DNA of 64,000 nt. Source: an uncultured virus (IMG/VR IMGVR_UViG_3300024999_000046) (Duplodnaviria; Heunggongvirae; Uroviricota; Caudoviricetes). This document shows positions 7,785-47,959 of the stretch, piece after piece. Location of the stretch: the IMG/VR virus record IMGVR_UViG_3300024999_000046; one strand, written 5' to 3'. Position numbers and translations under genes: made by a program. The number at the start of each line of letters is the position of its first letter. Position 1 is the stretch's first letter. The notes under the pieces are model-generated. The model was not told where the DNA came from. It worked only from the letters and a program-made list of their open reading frames with translations, and did not search any database.

Positions 7785-7962
7785 TTTAATTTCATTATTC
7801 TTCCTCTTTTTATAATGATAAATTAATATTGATAATTTTACTAAATGGCTGATGGAATTAATTAATCCATTAAAAAGAAGGTGTCCTTTCCTTCGCCATT
7901 TAGTTTTTTATATTGCCAAATAAAGGACAACAAAATAGAAAAAATAATAAAAAGAAAAGGAC

Positions 7963-9164
7963 GTGTTAAAAATGGAAAAGAACAATGAGAAAAACGAGAA
8001 TAATGAGTTACAAGTATTTACAAGTGAACAGTTTGGTCAAGTAAGAATTATGACAATTGATGGAGAAGATCATTTTAATCTTTATGACATTGGAATGGGT
8101 TTAGGCCATACTAGACCAAATGCAAAAGGTAAAATGTATTTAAGAAAAGATGATTATGTAAAACTATGCGAAACCCTTGGAGTTTTAGGTGTGACGGAGT
8201 CTGTCACAGGTATAATTATAGATAAAGACACTGATTTTGAAAATACATATGTATCAGAAGATGCATTTTTTGATTTATGCTTAGAGAGTAAAGCTAAAAA
8301 TGCCAAAACTTTTAGAAAATGGGTCACATCTGAAGTCCTACCTTCTCTTCGGAAACGTGGAGTATATATTATGGAACATGCGAAGGAAGAAACAATTGAT
8401 AATGAGAAACTATTTGGGAAACGTAGAGTTAAAAATACATTTGCTAATGCAGATGCTCATGAGGTTGAGAAACTATACGAAGATTGTATAAATTATATAA
8501 ACGATGAATATAATACAAAAGATAAAATTAAAATATGTCAAAGTATATTTAATGGCTTGAGTGAGTTAAACTTAAAATTAGCAGAAGATGCAGTACGAAA
8601 CATTGGTAAGTGCTACGATGTTTCTTTATTACAAAATAGGGTTCTTGGTGATAAAGCAAAATATCAAAACAAGAGAAATGGTGGAATTAAGAGTTCTAAA
8701 ACTAAAGAAATAGATAAACAAGGCAAATTAATTAGTGAACAAGATGAAATCATAAGAGAACAACAAAACAAACTTGATTTTTTAAATCCAGATATTGAAG
8801 ATTTTACAATTATACCTCGGCATGGGTTTTCAGTAAATTATATGACAAAAACAATTATTGATAATAACGGAAAAATGAAAACGGTAACATCTGATGAATA
8901 TAGAAAATGGCAAAATAATTTTCCTAATGAAATTATATCACATGAAGAACATATTGATTGGGATAAAAAATATACATATGGTTAAGATTTGATGCCATAG
9001 AGTCTATGGATTGTGACAATATGTGTAAATCTGCAATCGATCAAATTGCAAGGCAATATAACGCCAACGATGGGAATGTGCAGATTAGAGAAGCAACAAT
9101 AAATAAAATAGTAAAATCATATGGTGAAGGTAGAATTTATTATATTATAAGAAATGTAGATTAA
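7963..9164 (+). pseudogene. BRO-N protein fused to a RusA-like domain, frameshifted at A6 run 8965-8970
   Basis: BRO-N motifs FTSEQFGQVR and FRKWVTSEVLPSLRKRG; -1 frame continues IYIWLRFDAIESMDCDNMCKSAIDQI.. to TAA at 9164. Confidence 0.7.
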
Positions 9165-9250
9165 TAAATAATATTTTATAAGAGGACAGAAGTTACTGAT
9201 ATCTCTGTCCTCCTTAATCACAAAATAATTATGGAGGTGAAACCACAAAC

Positions 9251-10012: not shown

Positions 10013-10041
10013 TAAATAAAATTTAAGAGAGAAGGATATAA

Positions 10042-18293: not shown

Positions 18294-18377
18294 ATTTTAA
18301 GTTAAATTTCTTTTGATTGCATTTTCCTCCACTTTAGTATATTCTTATTACAGAAAAAGTAAAGGGAGGAAAATTTA

Positions 18378-20481: not shown

Positions 20482-21957
20482 TTAAATTACATTCCTTAAT
20501 GCAATAGTTAATTGTGAATTTCTTAATCTTTCAACTTCAATATCATGTAAAACCTTAAATTCATTAAATTTATCAAAACATTTATCTCTATCCACTTTAT
20601 CTGCTAGATTATTTACATTCATAATTAGAAAACTTGAATACATATCCCTTTGAATTTTAATGGCTTCTCCATCAATATTGAAAGTATTCCATCTTTCACT
20701 TAAATCCTTCTTAACATAAGTATCATTAATATGATTATATTGACTTGCCTTAACCGTATATGTGTTGATTTTCTTAATCTCTGTGCCAAAATATTTTAAC
20801 TTTCTATTGATAATTTCAATTAGCATAGCTGGAGCTTTATTCGCTAAGCTTTTACCAAATCGTTTCTTTTTATTGAATTTACCTGTTTTCTTACTAATAG
20901 TAGTTTTCTTTGCTCGTTTTTGCAATCCTGAATAATTCATTTTTTCTACATAAAACTTATCCCCTAGTTTTAAAATATGATTAGCTAATTTGTTATGAGA
21001 TTGTTTCCTTATGTCTGCTTGTTTTTGCTGTAAGCATTTTAATTCTGTTTGAAGTAAAACATAGTGATTAGATTTTACCCATTTATCTCGATTGCCTTTG
21101 ATAATAGTGCCATCTTCATTGAATTTATTAGGATTTGTTGCTCGTCTTGATCTATCCATTTTACGTTGTAATATCCGTTTTTGATCTTCAATATTTTTAA
21201 CTTCTGGTGCTAATTCTAATAATTTAACCTCTGTGTTAGAACAATAAGCAATAGTTTGAGTTCCAATATCAATTCCAACATCCCCTTGAGTGATATATAA
21301 ATTAACTTCTCCAGTTTCTTTATTTGCTTTCATGGGTGGGATACCTTCTAAAACTAATTGAACATAATAGTATTCTTTACCTTTAATATCTTTCTTAATA
21401 AATCTGCAATATTTTACTCTATCTTGAATTGCCTTTTGAGCATAAATGTCATTATTCTCAATAATAATTGGCATTTTAAGTTTGTTAAAAATTATAACTC
21501 CATCTCTATATTTAATTGCTTGTTTATTATCTGCACCTTCTATGGAGTACATTTCGCTATATCTTACAAAATTAACTTTTTTAGCATTTCCAAATCTCAA
21601 TTTATTTGCTGCCTCAAATGCTCTTTTAACTAATTTTGCCTTAATATGACTTCCTAGACTAGAATACTCATTAATCATAAGTTTGGTGGCGAATTTACTT
21701 ATGTCGTATTCTCTAAAACCATATTTAATTTCGACTTCAATAAATAGTTTCTGTTTTAGTTTTTTATCAGTTTCTTTTCTTGCTTGTTGATACAATTTAC
21801 TCTCGCGCATAAGATTGAATCTTCTCAAAGTTTCGCCAAGAATAGCATTATATAGTCTTCTTGATAATTCAAAATATTTATCTAATGCAGAATTATCTGA
21901 AGTCGTATATTTCATTTTGAGCGTTAAGACATAAGATGAAGTTTTAGCTTTTGCCAT
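20482..21957 (-). CDS. tnpB: TnpB family RNA-guided endonuclease
   Basis: RuvC motifs GIDIG, FYVEKM and QRDMY; YYVQLVLEG; QRKMDRSRRATNP; no tnpA nearby. Confidence 0.88.
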   Translation of the reverse strand: MAKAKTSSYVLTLKMKYTTSDNSALDKYFELSRRLYNAILGETLRRFNLMRESKLYQQARKETDKKLKQKLFIEVEIKYGFREYDISKFATKLMINEYSSLGSHIKAKLVKRAFEAANKLRFGNAKKVNFVRYSEMYSIEGADNKQAIKYRDGVIIFNKLKMPIIIENNDIYAQKAIQDRVKYCRFIKKDIKGKEYYYVQLVLEGIPPMKANKETGEVNLYITQGDVGIDIGTQTIAYCSNTEVKLLELAPEVKNIEDQKRILQRKMDRSRRATNPNKFNEDGTIIKGNRDKWVKSNHYVLLQTELKCLQQKQADIRKQSHNKLANHILKLGDKFYVEKMNYSGLQKRAKKTTISKKTGKFNKKKRFGKSLANKAPAMLIEIINRKLKYFGTEIKKINTYTVKASQYNHINDTYVKKDLSERWNTFNIDGEAIKIQRDMYSSFLIMNVNNLADKVDRDKCFDKFNEFKVLHDIEVERLRNSQLTIALRNVI

Positions 21958-30749: not shown

Positions 30750-31643
30750 ATGACAAATAAAGTTATAGTTCTTGACCCAGGGCATCAATCAATTCCTAAT
30801 GCTGATACTGGTTGTCAAGGTTTTAGTCTTCATGAAGAAGATATAGTTTTAGATATTTGTAAGCGTGCAAAAACATTAATTGAATTAAATGGAATAAAAG
30901 TTATTATGACTAGGGATGGGGCAAAAGTGAATGGTGATGGATCTTCTGTTAATGCTTCATTAAATACAAGATGTAAAATTGCCAATTCAAATAAAGCAGA
31001 CTTGTTCCTTAGTGTACATTGTGATGCCTTTAATTCTACTGCTTATGGAACATCATGTCATATATTTAGTTTAGGAGGAAATGCAGAAAGATTTGCTAAG
31101 ATTTTAAATCCTATGATGGGACAATTATTTTATAACAGAGGAATTAAGGTGTCAAATTTTGCAGTAATCAGGGACACAAATATGCCAGCAGTATTATTAG
31201 AAACTGCGTTTTTAGACAATAAAAATGACAATGCTAAATTAGCAGATGTAAATGTAAGACAACAAATTGCTGTGAATATTGCTAAATCTGTTTGTATTTA
31301 TCTCTTTGGAACCGATTATGTTTATAAAGATAATTCTTCAGTTTCGATTATTCAATCAACAACAATAAATAATAATCAAGGAGATGACAATGTGTTAGAA
31401 GTTTGTGTACTTTTATATTCAAAAGAGGACTATTGGAGTGGAACTGATGTAGCAGAAAAGAATGGTAATTGTGCTATTTTTATTAGACCAGTTGATAAAA
31501 GTGTTCCAAAGGACGCTATGAGTGCAAAAAAGTTAATTGTGGTAGGAGGCAGTTCAGTTAAACATCCTAATGAGATTTTGTTAAGTGGAAATACAAAATA
31601 CGACACAGCACAAAAAGTTAATAGTTATCTTTTTGGTAAGTAA
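30750..31643 (+). CDS. endolysin, N-acetylmuramoyl-L-alanine amidase (Amidase_3) with C-terminal cell-wall-binding domain
   Basis: LDPGH, E, SVHCD and PAVLLETAF motifs. Confidence 0.92.
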   Translation: MTNKVIVLDPGHQSIPNADTGCQGFSLHEEDIVLDICKRAKTLIELNGIKVIMTRDGAKVNGDGSSVNASLNTRCKIANSNKADLFLSVHCDAFNSTAYGTSCHIFSLGGNAERFAKILNPMMGQLFYNRGIKVSNFAVIRDTNMPAVLLETAFLDNKNDNAKLADVNVRQQIAVNIAKSVCIYLFGTDYVYKDNSSVSIIQSTTINNNQGDDNVLEVCVLLYSKEDYWSGTDVAEKNGNCAIFIRPVDKSVPKDAMSAKKLIVVGGSSVKHPNEILLSGNTKYDTAQKVNSYLFGK

Positions 31644-31873
31644 AAATTAGAAATTTTAGATAAAGATAATTCAAATAAGAGGTGTAATTATTTACATCTC
31701 TTTTAATCTACTAATATTATTTTAATATTTAATAAATCATATTCAGTTTTATTTACTTGGTTGTCATATGTAAGACAAGTCTGATTGCCCTCAGAACTTG
31801 TCATATCTGATTGTAATGTTCGTAGCACTACAACCATTAACGTAAGTATATATCAGAAAGGGGCAAAAGTCAA

Positions 31874-32341
31874 ATGCAAAATAAAAATATTGTTATGGAA
31901 GAGGTGAATAATGTGGCAATCGAGGATGAAGTTAAGGACGCATTAGACAAATTGGACTCACACAAGCAAATTTTAGATACACATGATCATAAAATTAATA
32001 TTCATGATGATAAGATTCAAAATCTTGAAACAAATACCAGTGTTCTAAAAGAAAAAATGATAAATTTGGAAGGTATTGTCACCAGATTTGAATCCAATTC
32101 TTACCAGACACAAAATAGTATGATGCAACTACTTTCACAAGTAATTGTCAACACTAGTAATAGTTCTGTCGAAATTATGAAAAATGCCACCCAAAGCGAA
32201 GTGCAATTTAATAAAAATAAAACAGAAATAGCAAAAGTAAAAAATACAAACAATATGACAATAATTGTCAAAACTCTTGCAGTGGTTTCTGTTATTGTAT
32301 TGGGGTATTTTTCTATAAGATATGGTATTTCAATAAAATAA
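31874..32341 (+). CDS. XhlA-like lysis accessory protein
   Basis: Coiled coil plus C-terminal TM helix, in lysis cassette. Confidence 0.55.
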   Translation: MQNKNIVMEEVNNVAIEDEVKDALDKLDSHKQILDTHDHKINIHDDKIQNLETNTSVLKEKMINLEGIVTRFESNSYQTQNSMMQLLSQVIVNTSNSSVEIMKNATQSEVQFNKNKTEIAKVKNTNNMTIIVKTLAVVSVIVLGYFSIRYGISIK

Positions 32342-32351
32342 AATTTAAGGA

Positions 32352-32609
32352 TTGATTAATATGAACATATTGAAGAAACTTAAAAATTACTTCATATCAA
32401 AAATAACATCAAGAATCATAATTACATTAACTGCAGAAATAAATAAAGAAATCTCAAAACAAAATGAAGACCTCTACGCACTACTCGAAGAAGAATTTGC
32501 AATTGCAATTGCAAGAGAACAACATATATTTAATAAAATACAATCACAAGAGATATTTAAACAATTGGATGTAATTGGGAGAACATTAAGAGGAAAAGGA
32601 TTTAATTAA
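32352..32609 (+). CDS. hypothetical protein
   Basis: ORF with RBS in lysis cassette. Confidence 0.5.
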   Translation: MINMNILKKLKNYFISKITSRIIITLTAEINKEISKQNEDLYALLEEEFAIAIAREQHIFNKIQSQEIFKQLDVIGRTLRGKGFN

Positions 32610-32651
32610 AAATATAAAACAAATAAAATAAATTTAAGGAGATGTATTAAT

Positions 32652-33038
32652 ATGGATATCGCAACAGCGTTACAAAGTTTTATGATGCTAAGTACATTAA
32701 CACTTGGAATAACACAAGTATATAAAGAAGTAATTTCTAACAAGAACACTCAAAAGGCAAGTGTAATTATTGCCATGATTTTATCTTTGGTTACAGGAAC
32801 TAGTATTTTACAACCTTTAGGATTTGTTCCTGCTCATAATTTTGTGGATTTAATAAGTCAATTTAAAATAGGATATGATGTGCTTTATTGGATTGTTGAT
32901 ATTGCTGTAACAGGATTCTTAGCGAGTAAGGGATCTAGTTTCACTGTTGATTTGTTTAATAAGAGAAATGCAGTAGACAGTATTGCTATACCAGTAATTA
33001 AAGAAGATACGGTAGAAGAGAAAGAAGAAACAAAATAA
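32652..33038 (+). CDS. holin-like membrane protein
   Basis: Three hydrophobic segments, TGFLASKGSSFTVDL, charged tail. Confidence 0.7.
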   Translation: MDIATALQSFMMLSTLTLGITQVYKEVISNKNTQKASVIIAMILSLVTGTSILQPLGFVPAHNFVDLISQFKIGYDVLYWIVDIAVTGFLASKGSSFTVDLFNKRNAVDSIAIPVIKEDTVEEKEETK

Positions 33039-33636
33039 CCCACAATAATCAATTTTAAACAGCATATAAGCGTTTCAAATATAAGAGTGGAATAATCTTA
33101 TACAAACACTATTTGAAACGCTTAGAGGAGTATTGTGATTTCTGCAACCATTGCTACAGTAGGGTTTTGTATATTAATAAATTTAAAAAGTAATCGAGGA
33201 TAAGTTAATAATATGACTTATATTTAATTTGCTATAGAAGAATCATAAACTAAAATGAATTTCTCATTTTATAGGGTGAGTATAGACTATGCAGTAAATT
33301 GAAGTAATCAAGAGTTAATGGAAGCATGGGATAGGTAAAATAGGGTATAAAACGTAATATTAGGTCATTTAGTTCGATTTGAGAGAATTTTATTAATTTA
33401 AAGTTCTCTCTTATTTATTATGGTCAGATTTAATTAAGATAACTTCCAAAAATCACTTAGAGAGTAGTGAAAACTATTCTAACACATTTTCTTTCATTTC
33501 TTATTAGTAAGAACGGCGAAGAGAAGAGTTAGGATTTTCTTAACTTTTCTCTAAGTGATTTTTGTATATAAAAACAATTCTTCGCCGTTTTGTTTTTGTA
33601 TTGAAATTACTAATAAAAAAGAAAGAAGTGATAAAA

Positions 33637-34314
33637 ATGAGTAATGGTAATGTATTACAAATATTAAATAATGTAAAAAACATAAATATTTTGTCTGGAA
33701 ACAATTACATTGTTACTTCAGATATTATTGCAGACTATTTTGAAGCAAATAAGGATTTAATTAGATACTTTATTAAAAGCAATAAGCAAGAATTAGATTT
33801 ATTAGGACTGCGAGTTATAAAAGGACAAGAGTTGAAAGAATTCAAATTATCAACGGGATTTAATTTAGTGTCTTCTAAAAATAATTATTCTGCATTAACA
33901 ATTTTCCCTTTAAAAATAATGTTGAAGTTTAGTATTCTTTTAGCTGGTTCTGATATTGCGAAATTAGTTAGAGAAGAACTTATAAAACAAAATCCAAAAT
34001 TGTATGAAGAGTTGTCAAATGGTCATAGATTGAAATTCAAGAAATTTGAACAAAAATATTGGGATTATCTATCTTTCTCATTCGGAGATGAATATATTCA
34101 GAAGCAAGTAAGTTGTGGTAGTTATTTGATAGACTTTGTTTTATATGAAAATATAGCTATAGAAATAGATGAGAATGGACATTCTTCATACTCTGGTGAA
34201 AAAGAAATGATTAGAGAGGAATATATAAGGAGTAATGGGTATAAATTAGTTAGATTTAATCCTCATAGACAAAAACCATATGAATTGATAGACATGATTC
34301 TTAAATCAAAATGA
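33637..34314 (+). CDS. antirepressor-like N-terminus fused to DUF559/Vsr-like endonuclease
   Basis: VT..IADYFE N-terminus; YLIDF..IAIEIDENGH..E..RE..I..G..VRFN. Confidence 0.7.
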   Translation: MSNGNVLQILNNVKNINILSGNNYIVTSDIIADYFEANKDLIRYFIKSNKQELDLLGLRVIKGQELKEFKLSTGFNLVSSKNNYSALTIFPLKIMLKFSILLAGSDIAKLVREELIKQNPKLYEELSNGHRLKFKKFEQKYWDYLSFSFGDEYIQKQVSCGSYLIDFVLYENIAIEIDENGHSSYSGEKEMIREEYIRSNGYKLVRFNPHRQKPYELIDMILKSK

Positions 34315-34586
34315 TGGTAGGTAGTTTCAGTACCCACCATAAATATACATAATTATTATATACCAATGACTTGAGATGGGTTGGAAAGTTTCGCTATCTA
34401 ACCTTTAATAGAAAATGCTTATAAATCAATATTTTTAAATAGGGTTAATCAAATTATTATCTAACCTTTAGACTGATGAACAATATGAGAAGATTAGAGA
34501 CCATTGGAGAAAATATCATATTGTTTTAGATTTAGATATTTAATAATACATAAATAAAATAATTTAAAATATAGGAGGAATACAAT

Positions 34587-34793
34587 ATGAAAAAATCTAA
34601 AATTGAAGAAATTAAATTATTATTAAAAGTTAATGAGGATTACTTTATTGATATGCAGATTGATTATTTAGAACATACATTTAATGTAAATATAAGTGAT
34701 GAGAATCATGAAATTGTTGACACTTATACAATTGGTTTTACTGAATTATATAATAAGTTATTTGAAGATGATGTTGAATTTAACTGGGATTAG
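34587..34793 (+). CDS. hypothetical protein
   Basis: RBS aggagg. Confidence 0.55.
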   Translation: MKKSKIEEIKLLLKVNEDYFIDMQIDYLEHTFNVNISDENHEIVDTYTIGFTELYNKLFEDDVEFNWD

Positions 34794-34882
34794 TATAAAT
34801 GATTTAAATAATATTAATATTGTGGGGTTGCTATTTATTAGTGACTCCTTTAATAATTAAAAATTAAAGGAGATTAAGGCAT

Positions 34883-35071
34883 ATGATGATTACTAAAGAA
34901 AGAGAATTCGTTTATATTTACAATCCTCAACAATCACAATTCTATTTTTCTAAAGGAATCCTACCCATTAAAGTTGGAACTGGTAGTAAGGGTGATCCTT
35001 ACACAATGTTTAAAAACAATGAAGATACAAAACAAGCGTTCACCGAATGGTGTACTCGTCGTAAGAAATAA
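34883..35071 (+). CDS. small hypothetical protein (DUF5659-like)
   Basis: YIYNPQQSQFY..G..F..W; directly upstream of primase. Confidence 0.5.
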   Translation: MMITKEREFVYIYNPQQSQFYFSKGILPIKVGTGSKGDPYTMFKNNEDTKQAFTEWCTRRKK

Positions 35072-35118
35072 AAATTCTTACATGATATGAAGAGATATGA
35101 AAGGAATAGTGAATTTAT

Positions 35119-36648
35119 GTGGAAGAGGTATCAGCAAAAAAGAAAGTCTATATTAAAAATGGTATTGAAATAGCACAAAAGATAGGTAAATTATATGTGA
35201 CTTATAGAAAGAAATTCATTGAACAATACCATAATACAGAAAAAGATATTATTACATATAGAGAAAATAAATTTCCATTGAATGACTCTATGATATTGAA
35301 GCATCTTACACAACAAAAGACCATTGGAGTATTTTCAGGAAATATAATAACTTCATTTATGTGTTTTGATGTGGATATAAAAGATGAAGCAATGTGTAAA
35401 TGGGCAGTAGATAAAATAGTTGATGCGTTACAAAATATAGGTATAGCAGGAAAGTATATTCATATTAGTCTAAGTGGGTCAAAAGGTTATCATATAGAGA
35501 TATTCTTTGATGAACCAGTTTATAATAGTGATATACATAAAATATATCTAATGATTCTTAATGCTACGGATTTACTTAATATTGATTATGGAGAAGTAGA
35601 ATTAAGACCATGTCTAACTAAAACAGGAAAGACACTAGGCGTAAAATTACCTTTAGGAGTAAATCTTAAAACTAATAACATTTGTTGGTTTTGTGATTAT
35701 GACAAAGGATTAAAACCAATTAAGGATTATAATTATGTTTTATCAATTGAAACAATGCCAAAAGAAATATTGCTAGATATATTAGAAAAAGAAGAAGATA
35801 TTTTAGTTACTCCTGAACAACAATACAAAATAGAAGCAATCACAGAAAAACATAAACCATTGCCTGAATATAAAAATAATGTTGATGAGAAATATACAGT
35901 TGAGCAAGTTGAAAATGTAATTACTAATGGATTACAAATAGCAGGATCAAGACATAATGCTTTGTTTAATATTATCAAGTATTATAAACATTTAGGTGTA
36001 TCTGAGGAAGATAATAAGGAATGGGTTACAGAATGGATGAATCAGCAAGATAAAACAACTTATTCTACTAAATGGGATGCAGTGTTACTAGATATTGCAG
36101 AAATTATTGATTATGTTTATACAAATAATTGTAGTTTTGTGATTAAGAATTTAAACATTGATGTTAGTATGGAAGAAATAATGGAAATTATTAAAATCAA
36201 AGGCAAGAATAATCAATTAGTATTATATTCTTTGCTTGTCCATAGTAAAAGATATTCTGTGAAAAGTGGTCAATTTTATATGTCATACAATCAGATGACA
36301 CAAGTGACTGGAATAAAGTCTAGGACTACTTTAGTAAAAGTGATTAAACAATTAGAAGAATTAGAGTTAATTACAGTGACTAGAGGAGAAGTTCCGAAAT
36401 ATAATAATAAATTAAGTAAACCAATTTCTGAGACAAATAAATATATAATAAAGCTATTGTGTCCAATTTTGGAAATTGAGAATAATAAGTTATTTAAAGT
36501 ATGCGACAAGAATTGTGTAAATTGTTTTAATGCTTGTCTTTGTAATATGTATTCTAATAAAGAATTAAAAGTTATGTTAACTGATTGGGATTATAGAGAG
36601 GTAACAAAGTATAGAGAATACTGTACTAATATTATGGTAATGGTTTAA
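35119..36648 (+). CDS. AEP primase-polymerase replicase with PriCT and winged HTH domains
   Basis: CFDVD, SGSKGYH, KLPLG; GSRHNALF; SYNQMTQVTGIKSRTTLVKVIKQLEE. Confidence 0.8.
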   Translation: MEEVSAKKKVYIKNGIEIAQKIGKLYVTYRKKFIEQYHNTEKDIITYRENKFPLNDSMILKHLTQQKTIGVFSGNIITSFMCFDVDIKDEAMCKWAVDKIVDALQNIGIAGKYIHISLSGSKGYHIEIFFDEPVYNSDIHKIYLMILNATDLLNIDYGEVELRPCLTKTGKTLGVKLPLGVNLKTNNICWFCDYDKGLKPIKDYNYVLSIETMPKEILLDILEKEEDILVTPEQQYKIEAITEKHKPLPEYKNNVDEKYTVEQVENVITNGLQIAGSRHNALFNIIKYYKHLGVSEEDNKEWVTEWMNQQDKTTYSTKWDAVLLDIAEIIDYVYTNNCSFVIKNLNIDVSMEEIMEIIKIKGKNNQLVLYSLLVHSKRYSVKSGQFYMSYNQMTQVTGIKSRTTLVKVIKQLEELELITVTRGEVPKYNNKLSKPISETNKYIIKLLCPILEIENNKLFKVCDKNCVNCFNACLCNMYSNKELKVMLTDWDYREVTKYREYCTNIMVMV

Positions 36649-36849
36649 TACTTCTATCTCTTATACTTATACTTATAATAATAATAATAGTGAAGGATTA
36701 AGACCTAAGAGACCAAGGGAACGAAGAACGCAACGTGGGTTCTATATAATAAACCTATTGTGTTCAAATTCCAACGCGTTTTCGGAAAATGGGTTGTAGT
36801 AAGGGATAGGAGAGAAACCTTAAAACAAACCAATAAATAAACACCACAC

Positions 36850-36982
36850 TTGACACAACTATAAAAATAATGTTACAATACAAATGTAAATGATTTATTA
36901 TTATTTTCCATTTCATTTACACTCTCTTTCTTTCATCCTTGTGAGGGAGTTCTAATATTGGATTAGGATTCCCTCTATTTTT
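36850..36982 (+). ncRNA. candidate small RNA (promoter, hairpin, CU-rich tract, terminator)
   Basis: TTGACA-18-TACAAT with extended TG; terminator gagggagttctaat..attaggattccctc-T run; no ORF. Confidence 0.5.
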
Positions 36983-37300
36983 TACCTTTATTAGTTTCTA
37001 AATATTATTATGAATCATAATTCAAATCATGTTTCATAAAAAAAATATTGTGATTTTAATTTAATCATAGCTAATGGAACTATTATGCAAGGACTAGATG
37101 TTCATTTTGCAATAGAAGATTGGATTAAGAAGGAAAATTTATCTCAATATGCAATTGAACAAATGGATAATCGTATGGAGCAAGAATGTGAAGAAGAAAT
37201 GAAAAGAGAAAGTAGGGAACATTTAAAAGTTGTTAAATAAAGGGAATAGTGATTCATTCCCTTTTCCCTTTTTCTTCTGTATAAATTGTAAAATAAATAT

Positions 37301-37330
37301 TTGACATTGGAATAGTCCGTATGGTATAGT
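37301..37330 (+). promoter_or_regulatory. sigma-A promoter
   Basis: TTGACA-18-TATAGT with extended TG. Confidence 0.75.
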
Positions 37331-37359
37331 TAAGACAAGGAAAGCGAGGTGAGAGAGAA

Positions 37360-37725
37360 GTGAAACAATTAATTAAATATCAATGTGAAATATGTAAAAA
37401 GGTATATGACACCTTAAAAGAAGCTATAAAATGTGAATCACGAGGCAAAGGATTACCTTTGGTTGAATTAGGAAAGACAATTTTATATAAAGATGATTGG
37501 AATGGTGGATTTGGCACTTGTTTTGATAAATTAGAAGTTGTCGAAATTAATGATAGAGGTCATTATCTTTATTATCAACTTGGAGATTGGAAAACTAAAC
37601 ATTCACAAGAGTATGTAACTGGGAACGATGAATTTAAAGAATTGTGTACTATTGTGGAAGATCAAAGTCTTTTAGTAAATAAAGGTAGTTTAAATGGTGG
37701 ATGGGAATATAAAATTGATATCTAG
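37360..37725 (+). CDS. hypothetical protein with N-terminal Zn-finger-like motif
   Basis: YQCEICKKVY..EAIKCE. Confidence 0.6.
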   Translation: MKQLIKYQCEICKKVYDTLKEAIKCESRGKGLPLVELGKTILYKDDWNGGFGTCFDKLEVVEINDRGHYLYYQLGDWKTKHSQEYVTGNDEFKELCTIVEDQSLLVNKGSLNGGWEYKIDI

Positions 37726-37871
37726 ACACTGTAAAAATTATAAAATTCACGAGTGTATAAAATAAATAAATATTAATCTATTATCCAATTAATAAGTTAT
37801 TAACTCCTTACCCACCAAGGATTAATATAAATAGGGTTGTGACCTACACAAAATTAGAAAGGGGCAAAATT

Positions 37872-38411
37872 ATGTCTAAAAATATTAATACTATAATTAA
37901 AGCTCAATTAGATGGAAAAAGTAATACTATTCTTCGTGACAAACTAAAAACTTATAATCTAGATATTGAAATGAATTATGCTGTTGCGGTGATAAAATTG
38001 CTAATTACAAATTCAGAAACTAAAAATAGTAATGAATTAAGTATTAATATCGTGCCTAAAGTTCATTATGTTACTCCTTTTGTTACAAAAAAGTTAGCAG
38101 AGGAATATATTGCAGAATTATCTAAAGTAGATAAAATGACAATGTTTCTTCATGTTGATAAAGGTAATATTATTGTGAAAAATGATGAAGTTGAAGAGTT
38201 CATAGATTCTGTAGAAAGAAGTTCTTCGGCAAGAGAGTATAATAATACAGAATATGGTGAAATGTCTTATATTAGTTCTCTCAATATAGTTGCTTATGGT
38301 TGGTTAAATACTTATTCAGAAAAAGAAAAAGAAGAATGTGCTTTTAAATTAGGTGGAATGAAAAATTATCAAGAGATTAGGGATATATTTGACAATTGGG
38401 AATTTAAGTAG
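37872..38411 (+). CDS. hypothetical protein
   Basis: RBS gaaagggg then ATG at 37872. Confidence 0.65.
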   Translation: MSKNINTIIKAQLDGKSNTILRDKLKTYNLDIEMNYAVAVIKLLITNSETKNSNELSINIVPKVHYVTPFVTKKLAEEYIAELSKVDKMTMFLHVDKGNIIVKNDEVEEFIDSVERSSSAREYNNTEYGEMSYISSLNIVAYGWLNTYSEKEKEECAFKLGGMKNYQEIRDIFDNWEFK

Positions 38412-38510
38412 AATTTATTAATTAATAACTAATGAGTAATATCTACTGAGGTGGGCAGTAGAATAAATAAAATTTAATGTAAAATTAAAAATTAGAAAGA
38501 GGTAATAAAA

Positions 38511-38756
38511 ATGAATTCAAATATAACCAATGCGAAAGTTCAAATTATTAATGTTGATGGAAAAGAATATATCCAATTAGAAGGCGATACAATGTTTGAT
38601 GAAATGAGTGGTAAAATATTTGTTGCAAGAATAAGCTTAGAGAATATTACATATTCTGTTGGTATGGGTGAGGACGGCAATAGAACTGGAGAAATTGTGT
38701 TTAAACTTTTACCTGATGAAAGTCATCAAATGGTAAGTTATAGTTTTGGTAGGTAG
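38511..38756 (+). CDS. hypothetical protein
   Basis: RBS gaaagaggt. Confidence 0.6.
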   Translation: MNSNITNAKVQIINVDGKEYIQLEGDTMFDEMSGKIFVARISLENITYSVGMGEDGNRTGEIVFKLLPDESHQMVSYSFGR

Positions 38757-38810
38757 GATAGTTAGAATTTTCGTTCAAATTAGAAATAAATAATGAAAGA
38801 GGTAATAAAA

Positions 38811-39161
38811 ATGGAATATACAAAATCAATTAAGTATGAGATCAATGGGGTTTATGGTAATGTTACATATGCAGACATTAATTTAAATGGAGAATATTAT
38901 CCTTCTAGACATAATTCAGAAGAAAGAGATATTAATACTCATAAAACTATTTCGTTAACAGATGAAACCAATGGATTACCAAATGGAATTAGTATGGATG
39001 ATTATTTCAAAATGGCATTGTTACAGAAACTTGATAATATTGAAAAGAAACTTAATACTCCGCAGAATATTACTGTAAATGTTGCATTAGATAATATTTC
39101 AAATGAAGTTCTTGCTAAATTGGCATCGCTTGTTTATGGAGAGAATGTTAAAATAAATTAA
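38811..39161 (+). CDS. hypothetical protein
   Basis: Same RBS context gaaagaggtaataaaaATG. Confidence 0.6.
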   Translation: MEYTKSIKYEINGVYGNVTYADINLNGEYYPSRHNSEERDINTHKTISLTDETNGLPNGISMDDYFKMALLQKLDNIEKKLNTPQNITVNVALDNISNEVLAKLASLVYGENVKIN

Positions 39162-39261
39162 ATTGTTAATCCCATAGCAGAGGGGCTGATACTCTGCTTA
39201 ATTATTAAGAGATGCACAAGTTATACACACACAAGTAAATTAAAATTTAAGGAGAGATAAA

Positions 39262-39558
39262 ATGGAAAAGTTTGATCTTGTAAAACATTGGGAAAAATTT
39301 ATGAATAATAAACTGGTAGTTAATTGTAGGACTCAGGAATTAGCCGATGAATTCTTTATATTTTGTGATAGTAAAAATCTAAAGTGGAGAGCTGATAATG
39401 AAAGTTTATTGGTACAAGGGAATTTATTTTACAGGTTAAATGAAGAAACTTGCTACACTTATGATAACGGAACGGATAAATGCAAAGGTATACATTATTC
39501 TGACATAGATTGGTTTAAAAACAAAAATATAGACATTGTAGAATTTCAAGGTCTTTAG
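39262..39558 (+). CDS. hypothetical phage protein
   Basis: RBS aaggag; VVNCRTQELADEF. Confidence 0.6.
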   Translation: MEKFDLVKHWEKFMNNKLVVNCRTQELADEFFIFCDSKNLKWRADNESLLVQGNLFYRLNEETCYTYDNGTDKCKGIHYSDIDWFKNKNIDIVEFQGL

Positions 39559-39714
39559 AAATCGCCAAATAAAACCCATAGTAGAGGACTCTGTTGATTA
39601 ATTGCAAAATACAAAGTGATATGAATTGTTAAATTAAGAAATAAATATAATGTGGAGAACTTGCAAGTTTACATAGCGTAGCTACGCCTCCCTGATCAGG
39701 AGGAGAGAAAGAGA

Positions 39715-40857
39715 ATGGGCATCAATAATATTAAAATAACATTAGATCATGCTAGGCAGGAATTTATCGATAGAGGATATATTCCATTATTCAACCATTA
39801 TAACAACGCAAAAGAAAAACTACTAGCAAAAACGATAGAAGGATATAAAGTTTTGATAAGTTTAGATAAATTAAAACAAGGAAGAACCCCGCCTATATTT
39901 GCGAAATATAATCCATATACAATTGAAAATATTAAATTATATCTAGTTGTAAACAATATAGACTTAAAATTTCTATCTGGAGAATACATAAATAATTCGA
40001 GTAAATTTAATTTTATTACTTCACAAGGATTTAAAATTTCATCTACTTACAAAGAGTTACATAATCAACATGCTATAGTTGGAATGTATAATCCGCACAG
40101 TATAGATAATATTGAATTGTGGTTAAAAACACATAATATTTATCTTAAAGTAATTGAAAAAGAATATAATTATCTAAATGAAAAAATAGAGCTAATTGAT
40201 GATGATGGATATAGAGTGAATATATGGTGGAGGTCTTTGCAAATTGGAGACATTCCTGAATTATTTAGCACGTATAATCCATATACCATAGAGAATATAA
40301 AATTATGGTTAACAAATTCCAATTTAGGATACACATTGATAAGTAAAAAATATGAAAATACTCACAGTAAATTAATATTGAAATGCCAAAAACATGGTTA
40401 TTTTAAAATTAGTTGGTCAGAATTATATACTCAAAAGCACAGATGTCCATTATGTTCACTAGAAAATAGAAGTGGAAATAATCATTATAATTGGAAAGGT
40501 GGCCTATCCTCTGATAATGAGATGTTTAGAAAATCTTTGGAATATAAAAATTGGAGAACAGAAGTATTCAAAAGGGATAATTATACTTGTCAATGTTGTG
40601 GAAATAAAAAAAGGAAACTAAATGCTCATCATATAAAAAACTTTAGCTCTAATGAAGAATCAAGGCTAGATTTAGATAATGGAATTACATTATGTGATTC
40701 GTGTCATAATCCTAGTCAACGTGGTTCATTTCACAATATGTATGGAACTTATAACAATTCAAAAGAGCAATTAACTGAATACATGAAATCAACTCGTGTA
40801 TTACTACCAATCGTTATCCGATTATACATAAACAAAAATAAGGAGCGAATAAAGTGA
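39715..40857 (+). CDS. HNH endonuclease with N-terminal repeats
   Basis: Three NP(Y/H)(T/S)I(E/D)NI.L.L repeats; WRTEVFKRDNYTCQCC..AHHI..NGITLCDSCH. Confidence 0.9.
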   Translation: MGINNIKITLDHARQEFIDRGYIPLFNHYNNAKEKLLAKTIEGYKVLISLDKLKQGRTPPIFAKYNPYTIENIKLYLVVNNIDLKFLSGEYINNSSKFNFITSQGFKISSTYKELHNQHAIVGMYNPHSIDNIELWLKTHNIYLKVIEKEYNYLNEKIELIDDDGYRVNIWWRSLQIGDIPELFSTYNPYTIENIKLWLTNSNLGYTLISKKYENTHSKLILKCQKHGYFKISWSELYTQKHRCPLCSLENRSGNNHYNWKGGLSSDNEMFRKSLEYKNWRTEVFKRDNYTCQCCGNKKRKLNAHHIKNFSSNEESRLDLDNGITLCDSCHNPSQRGSFHNMYGTYNNSKEQLTEYMKSTRVLLPIVIRLYINKNKERIK

Positions 40858-41753
40858 CAGAGAATGAATTTAGTGTTGAATACATATTGCTAAATAATTT
40901 GAATGCTTACGGGTTTATATATATTACAACGAATATAATAAATGGAAATAAATATATTGGGCAAAAGATTTTTAATAGAAATTGGAAAAGTTACTTAGGT
41001 AGTGGTAAATATCTTAAAAATGCTATTAGAAAATACGGAAAAGAGAATTTCACCAGAAAAATATTAGAAATAGCATATTCCAAAGAAGAATTAAACATAT
41101 TAGAGATTAAATATATTAAAAATTACAGAGCTGTCGAAAATGAAGATTATTATAATATAAGTGTCGGTGGTGATGATACATTTCTTTTTAAAGGCCATTT
41201 TCATTCAAAAGAATCAAAGCTAAAAATAAGTGAATCATTGAGAGGTCATTATGTATCGGAAGGCACAAGATATAAGTTACAAACAGCCTTAAAAGGTAAA
41301 AACAATCCTATGTATGGTAAAAATTTTTCAGAGAAAACAAGATTAAAAATGAGTAAAACTAGAAAAAAACTCAATAGTACACAAACTAAAGAAATTAGAA
41401 ATAAATATGCTACAGGCAGTTATTATCAAAAAGATTTAGCAGAAGAATACTTGGTGTGTTTAAGAACTATTTCTGATATTATTAATTTTAAAGGTGTATA
41501 TGATGAACAGATAATTTTAAAACAAAATAGACCACACGGCAATATTACTGGTCGTCCTCCGATATCAATAATACAACTGTCTCAAAATGAAACAATTATA
41601 AAAATATGGAATTCAATGACAGAGATAATGAAGTCTTTAAATATTCACAAATCTCGCATTTCTGAATGCTGTAACCACAAACGAGAAACGACTGGTGGCT
41701 TTAAATGGCAATACTACTCAGAATACATAAATAATTATTATTCACTTAAATAA
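40854..41753 (+). CDS. GIY-YIG homing endonuclease with NUMOD3/NUMOD1 motifs
   Basis: GFIYITTN.INGNKYIGQ; HSKESKLKISES; NPMYGK; ISECC..GGFKW. Confidence 0.9.
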   Translation: MTENEFSVEYILLNNLNAYGFIYITTNIINGNKYIGQKIFNRNWKSYLGSGKYLKNAIRKYGKENFTRKILEIAYSKEELNILEIKYIKNYRAVENEDYYNISVGGDDTFLFKGHFHSKESKLKISESLRGHYVSEGTRYKLQTALKGKNNPMYGKNFSEKTRLKMSKTRKKLNSTQTKEIRNKYATGSYYQKDLAEEYLVCLRTISDIINFKGVYDEQIILKQNRPHGNITGRPPISIIQLSQNETIIKIWNSMTEIMKSLNIHKSRISECCNHKRETTGGFKWQYYSEYINNYYSLK

Positions 41754-43033: not shown

Positions 43034-43099
43034 GGGTAATAGATTATTAAATAACAAAATGGGTAGTGACCGACCACTATAATAAAGGAGGAAATTATA

Positions 43100-43615: not shown

Positions 43616-43618
43616 AAT

Positions 43619-44155: not shown

Positions 44156-44176
44156 ATAGTTGTAATAGCAAATAAA

Positions 44177-44212
44177 GAACTCCTAACTACTTTTATAGTG
44201 GTTAGGAGTTTT
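44177..44212. terminator. terminator between convergent blocks
   Basis: aactcctaactact..agtggttaggagtttt. Confidence 0.75.
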
Positions 44213-44219
44213 AATATAA

Positions 44220-44459
44220 TTAGTCCCAATTAACCTGTCCTTCGGAATCCCTACTGCGTTTTATAAAAAGCATAAGATATCCACATTTATTACATACATG
44301 AGCGATAGTTGGCATTGTAACAGAAAGTTCATTTGCTCTAAATGTAAAACCTATATCCATGCCTAATGGTTGTACTTTATCACTGTTACACATTGGACAT
44401 TTTATGGTTATGGGTTGATTGTTAATGATTTGTGTATTAGTTTTCATATTGTTTTTCAT
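44220..44459 (-). CDS. small Zn-ribbon protein
   Basis: CPMC..CNKCGYLMLF. Confidence 0.65.
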   Translation of the reverse strand: MKNNMKTNTQIINNQPITIKCPMCNSDKVQPLGMDIGFTFRANELSVTMPTIAHVCNKCGYLMLFIKRSRDSEGQVNWD

Positions 44460-45306
44460 TCTCCTTTAATTTTAATAACTCGCCATTTATAACTTCTGTG
44501 TTAAATTTTAAAAATAATTTCTTATATAATTTATCATGTTTTATCTTAAATATAGAAGGAGCAATTTCTAATTTAATCATAATTTGTTTGAATTCAAATA
44601 AATCAAGTTTCTTTTTGCCTGATTCTATCTTTTGCAATTCAACTGTTTTGAGATTAATAATATTAGCAAAATTTAAAACAGATAACTTTTTAAACAGTCT
44701 TAACATTCTAAAATTAAATCCGAAATAATTACCTGTATTTTTGAGTTCATTAATTTCTAATTGGAGATAAAAATCTTTAACACTAATTTGTTTTTCTTTT
44801 TCAGTTAGTGTAGTTTCTTGAGGAGTTTTAGTTTTAGGTTTCGGTTTAGTTTTCTTTATGATGGTTTGTCTGTTTTGTAGTTTCTTTTGCTTTGCTTTAT
44901 CGCTTGAATTTTTAGCATTTCTTTTCCTACTTTCTATTTTACATGTAGGACAGTATTTGCCAAATACATCGACTAAAGCACCACATCCTCCTTTACATAG
45001 TTTAGGTGCTTTAGATTTACGGTCTAATTTATCATTATAAGGAATTTGAGTTATGCGAGCTTTTTCATAACATTTATGGCATTTAAAATATTCCGTATTG
45101 GATAGAGGTTTAAGACATAAAAAACAGATATTTTGTTCTTTACAGTATTCTTTTTTGAATTGATAATTTTGAGTTATAATTTTTCTGCATTTCTCACAGT
45201 GCTTTTTTGTTTCTTCTGGATGTAAAGGAGAATTGCATTTTAGACAGAGACGAAGTTTCTTTTTTCTTTCATAGATTGTTTCTGGAATTGTGTCTGTGCG
45301 TTTCAT
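44437..45306 (-). CDS. Cys-rich multi-Zn-finger protein with C-terminal XRE HTH
   Basis: Six CxxC-type pairs; FGFNFRMLR..FANII..LQKIESGKK. Confidence 0.65.
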   Translation of the reverse strand: MKRTDTIPETIYERKKKLRLCLKCNSPLHPEETKKHCEKCRKIITQNYQFKKEYCKEQNICFLCLKPLSNTEYFKCHKCYEKARITQIPYNDKLDRKSKAPKLCKGGCGALVDVFGKYCPTCKIESRKRNAKNSSDKAKQKKLQNRQTIIKKTKPKPKTKTPQETTLTEKEKQISVKDFYLQLEINELKNTGNYFGFNFRMLRLFKKLSVLNFANIINLKTVELQKIESGKKKLDLFEFKQIMIKLEIAPSIFKIKHDKLYKKLFLKFNTEVINGELLKLKENEKQYEN

Positions 45307-45736
45307 TTATGATTGTCCTCCGTTGTGAGAATTGGTTTGGGTGTTAGGAATTATATGATTATTATAGCATAATTAGATGTTTTGTTCAAATTAGAGGGCA
45401 ATAAAAAGAAAGGAAGAATTTGGCTGTACAGCACCAAAAATCTTCCTTTGAAGTATAAACGATAGATAGAATGATAGAAGTATTGATAGAAATTGAAGTT
45501 GAGTTAGATGATAGAAGTTGATTTTATTATAGCATGGAGTGGGGGTTTTGGGAAGGGAGAGAGAAATTACTCTCTTTTTTGGGTTGTGGAGGGTTGTTTA
45601 TAAAATAATAATTTTGGTTGAATTGTTGGATTTGCAAGTTTGGCAATTTGTAATTAAGAAGACGCTTGAACTTTCCTTAGAGTTTGAGTGTCTTCTTCCC
45701 ATTTTTTAGCTTATTAAGGAAGGCGGTATAAGAATT

Positions 45737-47959
45737 ATGTTAATTAGTAAAGAAGTTGAGGTAGAATTATCAGGTACTAATATAGAATACTTTGAGAATA
45801 AGGGGTATTTTATACCAAGACGAGTAGACAAACAAGGGAGAACAAATGTTAAAAGAGGGACAAAAATAATTGTAAAGGTTGAAGACTTAAAAGATAATTC
45901 AGATGTGTTAGTTAGTGTTCAATGTGATGATAACGGAGAAATATTAGAAAATGTAGAATGGAAAGTTTATAAATACCATGTAAAAGAAGATGGAAAATAT
46001 TATTACAAACCTCATAATAATTCATCTAGAAAAATAAGTAAAAAATATTTAGGAAGAGGTTTGTCGTTTTATGATTGGTGTTATAAATACCTACCAAAAT
46101 ATATGGCAGATTATATACTATCTCGTTGGGACTATGAGAAAAATATAGATAAAGAAGGAAATATAATAAGTCCTAAAAATGTTGGACATGGTTCAGATGG
46201 TTTTGATAAAAAGAAAAGAGGTTATTGGTTTAAATGCCTCGATCATCCAGAGCATGGGTCAGAATTGAAAAGCATTTGTCGTTTTACTAATAATTTTAAG
46301 GGTTTTATGGGTAGTATTGAATGTATTCAGTGTAACGTTGTTGCATTAACTCATCCCCATTTGGTGAAGTATTTTGCTATTAAAGAAGATGCTTATAAGT
46401 ATTCTTTTGGTTCAAGTGAAATTGTTCTTATGAAATGTCCTGATTGTGGTTGTGAAAGAGAAATTAGAGTTAGCGATTTATCAAACAAGGGATTTTCGTG
46501 CAGAATTTGTTCAGATAAAATTCCTTATACTGAAAAGTTTTTTGCTAATTTCTTAAAACAAATATTACAAGAAAATTATATAATGCAATTATCAACAAAG
46601 ACTTTCAAATGGTGCGATAGGTATCAATATGACTTTTACATAGATAAAATGAACGGAATCATATGTGAAATTATGGGTAATCAGCATTATGAAGAAAATC
46701 ATGGTAATTGGAAAATGTCATTAGATGAAATACAAATTAACGATTTTGACAAGGAATGGTTAGCTAGAATAAATAAAGTTAAAAACTACATAATCATTGA
46801 CTGTAGAAAGTCGGAAATGAAATGGATTAAGAGAAGTATCATGCAGTCAAGATTACCAAAACTTTTAAATTTTAAAGAATCAGATATTGATTGGTTAGAG
46901 TGTCATGAGGCAGGATGTAAAAATATGATCAAGGAAGTTTGTGACTTGTATAATGACACTCGTAACGTATTAAAAATTTCTGAATTATTTAAAATAGGAA
47001 CTCAAACCGTTGGTAAATATCTCAAGCAAGGAGCAGAATTAGGTTGGTGTGACTATAATTCAAAAACAAGAGTCGTGTGCGTGACAACGGGAGAAGTTTT
47101 TGAATCACAAACAGAAGCAGGTAAGAAATATAATACCACTGGGATCTCAAAATGTTGCAGTGATAATGATATTAGAAGAACAGCAGGTAAATTATTGGAC
47201 GGTACAAAATTAATTTGGATGTTCTACGAAGAGTATATTATGAAAACAAAAGATGAAATTGAAAATATATTAAAAGAAGAATTGGAAGAACCGCATGGAA
47301 TGGTAATCAAAGTTATTTGTTTAACAAATGGAGAAATATTTAGCACAATGACTTCTGCTGCTGAAGAATATAATATATCATACAATAGTATATCTTCATG
47401 TTGTAGAAAATCAAGTTTTTCAGCAGGAACTGACTTGATTACAGGTAAACCTTTAGTCTGGATGTATTACGATGAGTATGTTTTAAAAACCAAAGATGAG
47501 ATCCAAAGTATATTGAATAATAAAAGAATTAAAACAAGATTTAAAGGAGAAATAATTTGTTTAACAACAAGAGAAACATTCAATGATGTCTATGAAGCCG
47601 GAATTAAATATAATATACGAGCAGATGCCATATCATTTTGCTGTGATAAAGATAAAACTAATAAGTCAGCAGGGAAACTTTCAGATGGAACAAAAATGGT
47701 TTGGATGTATTATAAGGATTATATATTAAAAACCAAAGATGAAATAGAAGAGATTTTACTGCCTAGTAATTTTGTTAAGGTAATATGTTTAACGACTGGA
47801 GAAATATTTAATTCTTTAGCAGAAGCACAAAGAAAATATAAGAATGCATCTCATATAGGGCATTGTTGTAAAGGTAAAGCAAAATCATCAGGAAGTTTGT
47901 TAGACGGAGTAAGACTCACATGGATGTATTATGATGAATATTTAGAAAGTAATAAATAA
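45737..47959 (+). CDS. Zn-ribbon / PD-(D/E)XK (Vsr-like) endonuclease with four NUMOD1-like repeats
   Basis: YDFYI..ICEIMGNQHY; four copies of (V/I)C(L/V)T.GE.F..CC..AG..WM(Y/F)Y. Confidence 0.75.
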   Translation: MLISKEVEVELSGTNIEYFENKGYFIPRRVDKQGRTNVKRGTKIIVKVEDLKDNSDVLVSVQCDDNGEILENVEWKVYKYHVKEDGKYYYKPHNNSSRKISKKYLGRGLSFYDWCYKYLPKYMADYILSRWDYEKNIDKEGNIISPKNVGHGSDGFDKKKRGYWFKCLDHPEHGSELKSICRFTNNFKGFMGSIECIQCNVVALTHPHLVKYFAIKEDAYKYSFGSSEIVLMKCPDCGCEREIRVSDLSNKGFSCRICSDKIPYTEKFFANFLKQILQENYIMQLSTKTFKWCDRYQYDFYIDKMNGIICEIMGNQHYEENHGNWKMSLDEIQINDFDKEWLARINKVKNYIIIDCRKSEMKWIKRSIMQSRLPKLLNFKESDIDWLECHEAGCKNMIKEVCDLYNDTRNVLKISELFKIGTQTVGKYLKQGAELGWCDYNSKTRVVCVTTGEVFESQTEAGKKYNTTGISKCCSDNDIRRTAGKLLDGTKLIWMFYEEYIMKTKDEIENILKEELEEPHGMVIKVICLTNGEIFSTMTSAAEEYNISYNSISSCCRKSSFSAGTDLITGKPLVWMYYDEYVLKTKDEIQSILNNKRIKTRFKGEIICLTTRETFNDVYEAGIKYNIRADAISFCCDKDKTNKSAGKLSDGTKMVWMYYKDYILKTKDEIEEILLPSNFVKVICLTTGEIFNSLAEAQRKYKNASHIGHCCKGKAKSSGSLLDGVRLTWMYYDEYLESNK

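Follow-up and report, generated by a model that had tools for sequence, protein, structure and literature searches.

The preQ1-II and SAM-II riboswitches are pseudoknots that sequester the Shine–Dalgarno (SD) sequence, and the fold-back inhibition of IS10 shields a mobile gene from transcription arriving from outside. Among phages, masking of the ribosome-binding site (RBS) of homing-endonuclease and lysis genes is to our knowledge textbook material only for the T4-like group, in the form of simple local hairpins. Here we compare these systems with five 5' leaders found on the plus strand of a 64,000-nucleotide (nt) stretch of DNA from an uncultured virus of the Caudoviricetes (IMG/VR record IMGVR_UViG_3300024999_000046; the whole stretch is called the window below): leader 1 (7840–7963), leader 2 (31757–31874), leader 3 (33447–33637), leader 4 (39654–39715) and leader 5 (45656–45737).

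For the T4 type, the sections of PMC2988022 used here report RBS-sequestering hairpins for I-TevI, I-TevII, I-TevIII, segB and mobE of Aeh1, and also for T4 soc, e, 39, 25 and 26. In these cases the RBS lies inside a stable local hairpin, and a late promoter within it relieves the block; autorepression of I-TevI is mentioned in the same sections. A further point of reference is the promoter-early stem-loop (PeSL) of T4-like phages, described in excerpts of PMC4122927 as a small terminator/promoter cassette that flanks variable genes and serves as a point of modular exchange.

The original prediction, made from the window alone, had treated the five leaders as one cis-regulatory RNA class in which an upstream strand pairs with the RBS of nuclease and lysis genes. 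The complementarities it named are all present in the sequence, and so are the downstream gene classes: a BRO-N gene, an XhlA-like gene (a weak match), a DUF559 gene, an HNH gene and a gene for a 740-amino-acid (aa) protein with a homing-endonuclease-like part. Its interpretation is partly supported: what emerges is several new leader families with an anti-SD logic, not one class, since the five are unrelated to each other and each is conserved in related phages. The explanation we favour, and consider reasonably probable, is that in leaders 1 and 2 an upstream apical loop pairs with the SD region as a long-range pseudoknot, that leader 5 probably behaves alike, that leader 4 probably uses a local anti-SD hairpin, that leader 3 is different, and that families 1, 3 and 4 are portable cassettes. 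Read from sequence comparison, the elements are RNA structures of the plus strand, their loops covary with the SD in leader 2 and with both the SD and a decoy in leader 1, and the cassettes have spread in a modular way. They do not belong to a described Rfam family, as had been suspected: the covariance models of Rfam 15, run over the whole window on both strands, gave no match at gathering score and none at E up to 1.

Covariation between loop and SD in leaders 2 and 1

Leader 2 follows the amidase endolysin gene (30750–31643), behind which a terminator-like hairpin with T-run (31678–31704) is conserved in relatives. It precedes the XhlA-like gene (31874–32341), with putative holin genes (32352–33038) 3' of the latter. 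Its first hairpin, P1 (31774–31802), exposes the anti-SD loop TTGCCC (31785–31790), complementary to GGGCAA (31861–31866) within the SD sequence GGGGCAA that stands before the ATG at 31874 (31860–31876). A second hairpin (31809–31836) can be exchanged as a module: relatives carry at least three versions of it that are unrelated to each other. No T-run follows the hairpins, and the folding z-score, computed from 200 shuffles per leader here and below, is −1.1.

Protein-guided scans for XhlA-like homologues yielded leaders at 16 viral-contig loci, which together with the window make 17 sequences, 16 of them distinct. Pairs were counted by a script anchored on the motifs, because MAFFT alignments left loop and SD out of register. 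All 16 distinct leaders carry TT[G/A]CC[C/A] in the apical loop of a predicted hairpin, on stems of diverse sequence (GACAAGTCTGA..., GGACAGCCAGA..., GGGAAGAGGG..., GGCAGATA...) and at a loop–SD distance of 41–98 nt; at three loci (L041, L049, L053) the motif has been lost from the first hairpin and is carried by the second. In the core, 95 of 96 loop–SD cells are paired. Compensatory double changes occur at L050 (TTACCC/GGGTAA) and L040 (TTGCCA/TGGCAA), and wobble changes at L042 and at L053, where the SD GGGCAG forms a U–G pair. Individual leaders extend the pairing into the flanks in their own way, up to 8–9 base pairs (bp), as in ACTTGCCC/GGGCAAGT, ATTGCCC/GGGCAAT and TTGCCCTC/GAGGGCAA, and a permutation of SD regions among the leaders, own versus cross, gives p=0.008. 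This covariation is of the kind expected of an RNA pseudoknot between a hairpin loop and the SD. Such pairing would tune or delay the synthesis of XhlA and holin. Elsewhere in the window, the gene at 37872 shares the SD context of the XhlA-like gene (AGAAAGGGGCAAAA, 37857–37871), with no TTGCCC upstream on its strand.

Leader 1 heads the BRO-N gene (7972–8985). Family conservation begins with a 5' box, TTGATAATTTT (7829–7839), which may be a −10-like element with the transcript starting at the stem. The Y-shaped element behind it (7840–7909) consists of an outer stem (7840–7849/7895–7904), a hairpin 1 (7850–7872) and a hairpin 2 (7877–7881/7890–7894) with the loop TGTCCTTT (7882–7889), followed by a T-run (7904–7909). 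In the window the predicted fold is a Y-shaped hairpin at 7840–7904 plus T6 with z −2.5, and the Y is retained in the five type I copies tested (z −3.8 to −5.9). Three of the leaders had been read as three-way junctions; this one holds up and is kept in relatives, that of leader 2 is uncertain, and leader 3 is instead a long hairpin with a second helix. The loop of hairpin 2 has two partners. Box 1, AAAGGACA (7922–7929), is its perfect 8-nt complement, and box 2, AAAGGAC, is the SD itself, in front of the ATG at 7972 (7956–7974); the loop letters GTCCTTT (7883–7889) are complementary to AAAGGAC at 7956–7962, and the second copy of AAAGGAC at 7922–7928 had been overlooked in the original prediction.

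Pattern scans returned 16 elements, 7 distinct, of which 5 proved real and 2 were chance matches; L059, L078 and L079 came in addition from 11 virus records searched by DNA and by covariance model, which brings the distinct copies to eight. Five of six weak hits of the leader 1 model were rejected as family members, the architecture being absent: none of the five has a comparable pair of box matches, and two carry one stray 6-nt loop match each, not at an SD. Across the copies, every one of the 90 cells of the outer stem and hairpin 2 is paired (slid controls: 31–53%), and two of the pairs are compensatory. L078 contributes two more by changing the hairpin 2 stem from GAAGG/CCTTC to GAGAG/CTCTC, hairpin 1 varies from ATGGA/TCCAT to ATGGG/CCCAT with a variable loop, and two copies have G–U in place of G–C.

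The boxes follow three codes. In the six copies of type I, the loop TGTCCTTT, box 1 AAAGGACA and box 2 AAAGGAC are all invariant. Type II (L059) has the loop TTCCAACCTA and the boxes AGGTTGGA and AGGTTGGG, including a wobble-type change (AGGTTGGG versus UCCAACCU). Type III (L079) has the loop TCCTCAA with the boxes TTGAGG and TTGAGGA, the latter within the SD GAGGAGG. Despite complete sequence change, the loop thus stays complementary to two downstream sites in all three codes. Box spacing varies among copies (36–42 and 34–40 nt), a variation easier to reconcile with RNA pairing than with protein sites in fixed phase. Types I and III retain the U-tract, which is weak in type II. The covariation among homologous leaders that had been named as a check on the idea is therefore there for the loop–SD pairing of leader 2 and, through three codes, of leader 1, whose predicted pairing it backs.

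The genes headed by family 1 are BRO-N, GIY-YIG, T5orf172 and DUF4379 genes and genes of unknown type; in L006/L007, a copy with 85% identity is found at another position, upstream of a GIY-YIG gene. In virus record G002 (L061, 1380–1600), the leader before a homologue of the BRO-N gene of the window is of the leader 3 type and not leader 1, and the last 50 nt of that leader resemble the 3' part of leader 1. This mixture implies that leaders and genes recombine near the SD or start codon. Inside the DUF559 gene, an AAAGGAC box with an in-frame ATG (33832) behind it also occurs at 33820–33834, either as an internal start before the nuclease-like domain or by chance.

Leaders 5, 4 and 3

Leader 5 starts with a hairpin (45656–45697) whose loop region TTCCTTA (45673–45679) is complementary to TAAGGAA (45715–45721), a pairing that needs the top 2–3 stem pairs open. 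A T-run follows at 45702–45707, and then the SD TAAGGAAGG with the ATG at 45737 of the 740-aa gene (45715–45739). With 19 bp, its T-run and z −3.3, the hairpin is the best terminator-like site between 30000 and 48000. Two relatives (L089 and L090, 77–78% identity) keep the hairpin, the loop TTCCTTAG and the SD TTAAGGAA. Over the three sequences, 94.7% of hairpin cells are paired (slid controls: 28–58%), two of the pairs being compensatory and several G–U. Neither loop nor SD varies, in contrast to the linker that joins them, and both relatives lack the T-run, which is present in the window genome only; hence we have in the hairpin an RNA structure rather than primarily a terminator. Leader 5 thus probably uses the same loop–SD logic as leaders 1 and 2. 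A further candidate relative, L102, was rejected, as only its SD region is common.

In the 740-aa product (45737–47959), three stretches match phrog_4538, and between them lies a homing-endonuclease-like segment (residues 209–373), which could be an inserted domain or reflect an intein-like arrangement. 5' of leader 5, a divergent region upstream of the minus-strand gene 44437–45306 holds repeated (T)GATAGAAGT boxes (45440–45560), which may be an operator array, together with a minus-strand TGCTATAAT (extended −10) near 45526–45534; a second terminator-like hairpin lies at 45554–45580 on the plus strand.

The leader 4 cassette (39646–39717) runs from a TATAAT (39646–39651) to the ATG at 39715 of the HNH gene. 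Along with TTGATAAT at 7829 in leader 1, this is the second −10-like box that is conserved or present in the leaders. It is followed by a conserved, perfect 12-bp palindrome, AACTTGCAAGTT (39658–39669), by a second palindrome, GCGTAGCTACGC (39676–39687), and by a local hairpin formed by CCTCC (39687–39691) and GGAGG (39699–39703). The folding z-score is −0.2 and, as in leader 2, there is no U-tract. Its relatives came from a DNA search of virus records, since the scan with the HNH protein returned identical copies and one partial match. There are six distinct copies, the window and five others at 81–86% identity, and they head HNH or GIY-YIG/NUMOD3 genes. CCTCC-CTGATCA-GGAGG is invariant among them; the second palindrome appears as GCGTAGCTACGC, GGTAGCTACC and GGGTGGCCACCC, with symmetric changes even at the positions of a would-be RNA tetraloop, so that the palindromes may be protein sites. 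The CCUCC/GGAGG stem of 5 bp has an opening energy of 5.2 kcal/mol, rank 15 among the 64 gene starts of the window, and leader 4 probably works as a short local anti-SD hairpin. Of the four loop–SD pseudoknots originally proposed, then, those of leaders 1 and 2 are backed by covariation and that of leader 5 by compatible conservation, and leader 4 drops out as a local hairpin that involves neither loop nor pseudoknot.

Leader 3 differs from all of these. Its long hairpin P1 (33447–33563; 117 nt, z −7.1) is followed by TTTTT and crossed by a second helix (33512–33522 with 33579–33589; 33512–33599 including the TTTTGTTTTT behind it), and the SD region AGAAAGAAGTGAT precedes the ATG at 33637 of the DUF559 gene (33620–33639). 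Six distinct copies were found in addition to L061, and pairs were counted on an alignment of five distinct rows. P1 is paired in 93.1% of cells (slid controls: 47–58%), and its pairs include four compensatory and many G–U ones; for the second helix the figure is 84.6% (38–56%), with two compensatory pairs, its variants being ACTGCG/CGCAGT at L001 and GTTGCGA/TCGCAAC at L027. Either the crossing helices make up a pseudoknot, or they belong to alternative folds, of which one is terminator-like; the U-tracts vary among relatives. The proposal that the closing strand pairs with the SD is not supported: the arm ATCACTT is complementary to AAGTGAT over 7 nt in the window, and this pairing is lost in relatives. 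We regard leader 3 as a different, strongly structured RNA, possibly an attenuator. Family 3 heads DUF559, HNH and BRO-N genes and a short open reading frame. The 600-nt spacer after the lysis block (33039–33446), just upstream, contains hairpins at 33058–33130 and a terminator-like one at 33381–33410; 33267–33435 is 89% identical in L013, and 33034–33365 is 73% identical in L021.

Chance level, alternative explanations and mechanism

How special are these pairings within one genome? The comparison set is the 64 gene starts of the window. The longest complement between the SD window and the upstream 158 nt is 7, 6, 7, 5 and 7 nt for leaders 1–5, and at least 7 nt in 18 of the 59 other genes. 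The loop–SD duplexes of leaders 2, 1 and 5 (−11.6, −9.4 and −7.4 kcal/mol) rank 1, 2 and 4 of 64.

Several observations weigh against the favoured explanation. A complement of at least 6 nt between a loop (plus 2 nt) and the SD is found in 12 of 64 genes, compared with 7.58±2.41 after shuffling, and at least 12 genes are reached in 8% of 60 rounds; for at least 7 nt the figures are 3 of 64 and 1.82±1.45. Of 40 shuffle rounds, 6 and 5 reach the best and second-best duplex energies, respectively, and in nested folds the SD opening energies of the five leaders hold the unremarkable ranks 14, 15, 48, 58 and 63 of 64. Promoter-like hits, too, are at chance level (131 versus 127.8±11.8). In this genome alone, equally good loop–RBS matches thus turn up in shuffled sequence and before arbitrary genes, and a genome-wide excess is not seen. 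The strongest SD sequestration of all 64, at a predicted 21.8 kcal/mol, stands before an Ig-domain tail gene at 18378 and not before a toxic gene. Among the relatives, L042 partly breaks the leader 2 pairing (GGGCGT; five pairs including one wobble, then a mismatch), the decoy match of type III in leader 1 is 6 nt only, and the arm–SD pairing of leader 3 is kept just in the window and L027, lost in L001/L024 and partial in L022. The SD pairings of leaders 4 and 5 come without informative variation; a count over the leader 4 copies finds no covariation in the second palindrome and SD hairpin, and the conservation of an SD and a pyrimidine-rich loop in these two leaders could have other causes. 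Homologues of the leader 5 gene at 43–49% identity (L005–L007) adjoin their upstream gene without any leader. Finally, the relatives' leaders come from a few related metagenome contigs whose lineages are not fully independent. The single-genome loop–SD observation is real, yet stays at chance level; what lifts it beyond that is the comparison with relatives alone.

Ahead of the tail gene at 18378, TTTTCCTCCACTTT has its pairing partner in AAAGTAAAGGGAGGAAAA, which lies at the SD (18313–18374); the next-highest predicted SD opening costs belong to the genes at 22547 (14.9) and 53184 on the minus strand (11.3).

The chance-level statistics would suit a simple view, in which the leaders are ordinary intrinsic terminators or operon-boundary hairpins and the SD match follows incidentally from loops rich in pyrimidines and SDs rich in purines. 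T-runs do stand behind the stem in leaders 1, 3 and 5, the leader 5 hairpin is the strongest such site in its region, and leader 1 sits at the junction of the tape measure and Dit genes (window and L079) or directly behind the lysis-block terminator (L021). We nevertheless think this view unlikely, because it leaves the compensatory loop and SD changes of leader 2 and the three codes of leader 1 unexplained, leader 2 hairpins have no T-run, and that of leader 5 is gone in both relatives that keep hairpin and loop. Could the boxes instead be DNA sites of sequence-specific proteins, changing with the specificity of phage regulators and not with RNA pairing? The sites would be one inverted and two direct boxes in leader 1, the inverted repeat TTGCCC...GGGCAA in leader 2 and the palindromes of leader 4. 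DNA binding is established for BRO-N and I-TevI-like proteins, co-evolving operators would also show a swap of the whole motif in all three boxes of leader 1, and the perfect 12-bp palindromes of leader 4, with their symmetric variants, look the part. However, without exception the inverted copy falls precisely on an apical loop and one partner overlaps the SD, the distance between partners varies (over the full 41–98 nt range in leader 2, by 4–6 nt in leader 1), stems covary through G–U-tolerant changes of the plus strand, and the changes at L053 and L059 are of the wobble type, all of which makes protein sites an improbable account of the families as a whole.

A T4-type two-transcript logic would let a read-through message with the anti-SD stay silent and a dedicated (late) promoter between anti-SD and SD produce a short translatable one. 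For T4-type genes this mechanism is known, in the sections of PMC2988022 used here, and leader 2 has a conserved block, cTTGAcGTAAnTATAnCA, between its hairpins and the SD. That block lacks sigma-70 spacing, however, and, taken as TTGACGTAAGTATA, shows no recurrence in the rest of the window (13 matches, 10.4±3.0 expected), and the two-transcript logic gives the decoy box of leader 1 no role; we hold it to be the least probable of these alternatives.

On the favoured explanation, a long-range loop–SD pseudoknot, pairing would lower or gate binding of the 30S subunit and initiation. In leader 1 the loop would either mask the SD or be titrated off by the decoy box; the U-tract would insulate the inserted BRO gene from transcription of the upstream tail operon, and read-through or the leader's own transcript would be gated by competition of decoy and SD for the loop. 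Candidates for what might shift this balance are the co-transcriptional order of folding, a factor, processing or a T4-like internal promoter. From these patterns we infer translational repression, termination and relief of the block, and likewise the role as a timing or safety switch that had been proposed. A more far-reaching idea, for which we see only a slim chance, is that leader 1 is an addressable riboregulator: a ~65-nt Y RNA, made from a promoter in the 5' box and mostly ending at its own U-tract, whose exposed second loop would act in cis and in trans on every leader with matching decoy and SD boxes. If true, scattered mobile nuclease and BRO genes would be under a common, code-specific translational control.

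Genomic setting and comparison with known systems

The window (28% G+C) belongs to a phage, or phage-plasmid, that is large, AT-rich and known from metagenome contigs only. Its relatives exist only among metagenome-derived viral contigs: a megablast of 31000–41000 against a phage collection gave no match, and scans of genome contigs with the XhlA alignment and with a leader 3 21-mer found nothing. Other genes in the window include the tape measure gene (1785–7784), the Dit gene (start 9251), a 2189-aa tail protein, an AEP primase-like gene (start 35119), a GIY-YIG endonuclease gene (start 40854) and ParM-like and TnpB-like genes; the window has no tRNA genes and no additional copies of any of the five leaders. 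The TnpB/OrfB_IS605-like gene (491 aa, 20482–21957, minus strand; phrog_506 transposase, weak Pfam OrfB_IS605 match) lies inside the tail region. The tape-measure/Dit junction (7785–9250) is a hot spot for inserted genes, holding the BRO-N gene in the window, BRO-like and other genes in L008 and L009, and a DUF4379 zinc-finger gene in L079.

The link to nuclease and mobile genes comes out stronger than originally proposed: families 1, 3 and 4 precede GIY-YIG, HNH, DUF559, BRO-N and T5orf172 genes in other phages. Because one leader family heads different genes, and the BRO-N gene stands under leader 1 in the window and under a leader 3-type element in L061, the cassettes are modular; the three families would have been recombined as portable regulatory cassettes before various free-standing nuclease or BRO genes. 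Together, the data suggest at least two undescribed leader RNA families with a distant loop that has co-evolved with the SD, in uncultivated AT-rich phages; the open-access literature searched held nothing specific on a loop–SD element before xhlA/holin or phage genes. Family 2 would govern an xhlA/holin lysis block and so bear on lysis timing, and family 1 would be a portable cassette with decoy and terminator-like stem that moves between free-standing nuclease genes. The leaders are candidate entries for RNA family databases, and they offer testable models of how selfish nuclease genes are kept harmless, how phages shuffle regulatory modules and how lysis genes are tuned in Gram-positive-type phages.

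How, then, do they compare with the described systems? With the preQ1-II and SAM-II riboswitches and IS10 they would share a block of initiation in which an upstream segment pairs over a long distance with the SD; unlike those, they have no ligand pocket or known family, place the anti-SD in a hairpin loop and, in leader 1, offer it two alternative partners. As in the T4 hairpins covered in the cited sections of PMC2988022, a cis RNA structure would occlude the SD of nuclease or lysis-type phage genes, and there is an association with free-standing homing-endonuclease genes. In contrast to T4, none of the five has its SD inside a stable local hairpin, leader 4 alone having a local stem, and leaders 1, 2 and 5 use a distant apical loop 25–98 nt upstream that would form a pseudoknot with the SD. 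A decoy box and a U-tract are further features of leader 1. The sequences are unrelated to those of T4, and the phages here appear to be of a Firmicutes-like AT-rich type. The PeSL is matched in that the cassettes of leaders 1, 3 and 4 stand before unrelated genes in different phages. A PeSL is, however, defined by an early promoter plus stem-loop; leader 1 and, in part, leader 3 show a stem-loop with T-run, and the promoters here are candidate −10-like boxes. Moreover, the present cassettes extend over the SD and the first codons and contain anti-SD elements, and they belong to another phage group without sequence homology. By analogy, the leaders of this phage would act like the RBS hairpins of T4 and spread like PeSLs.

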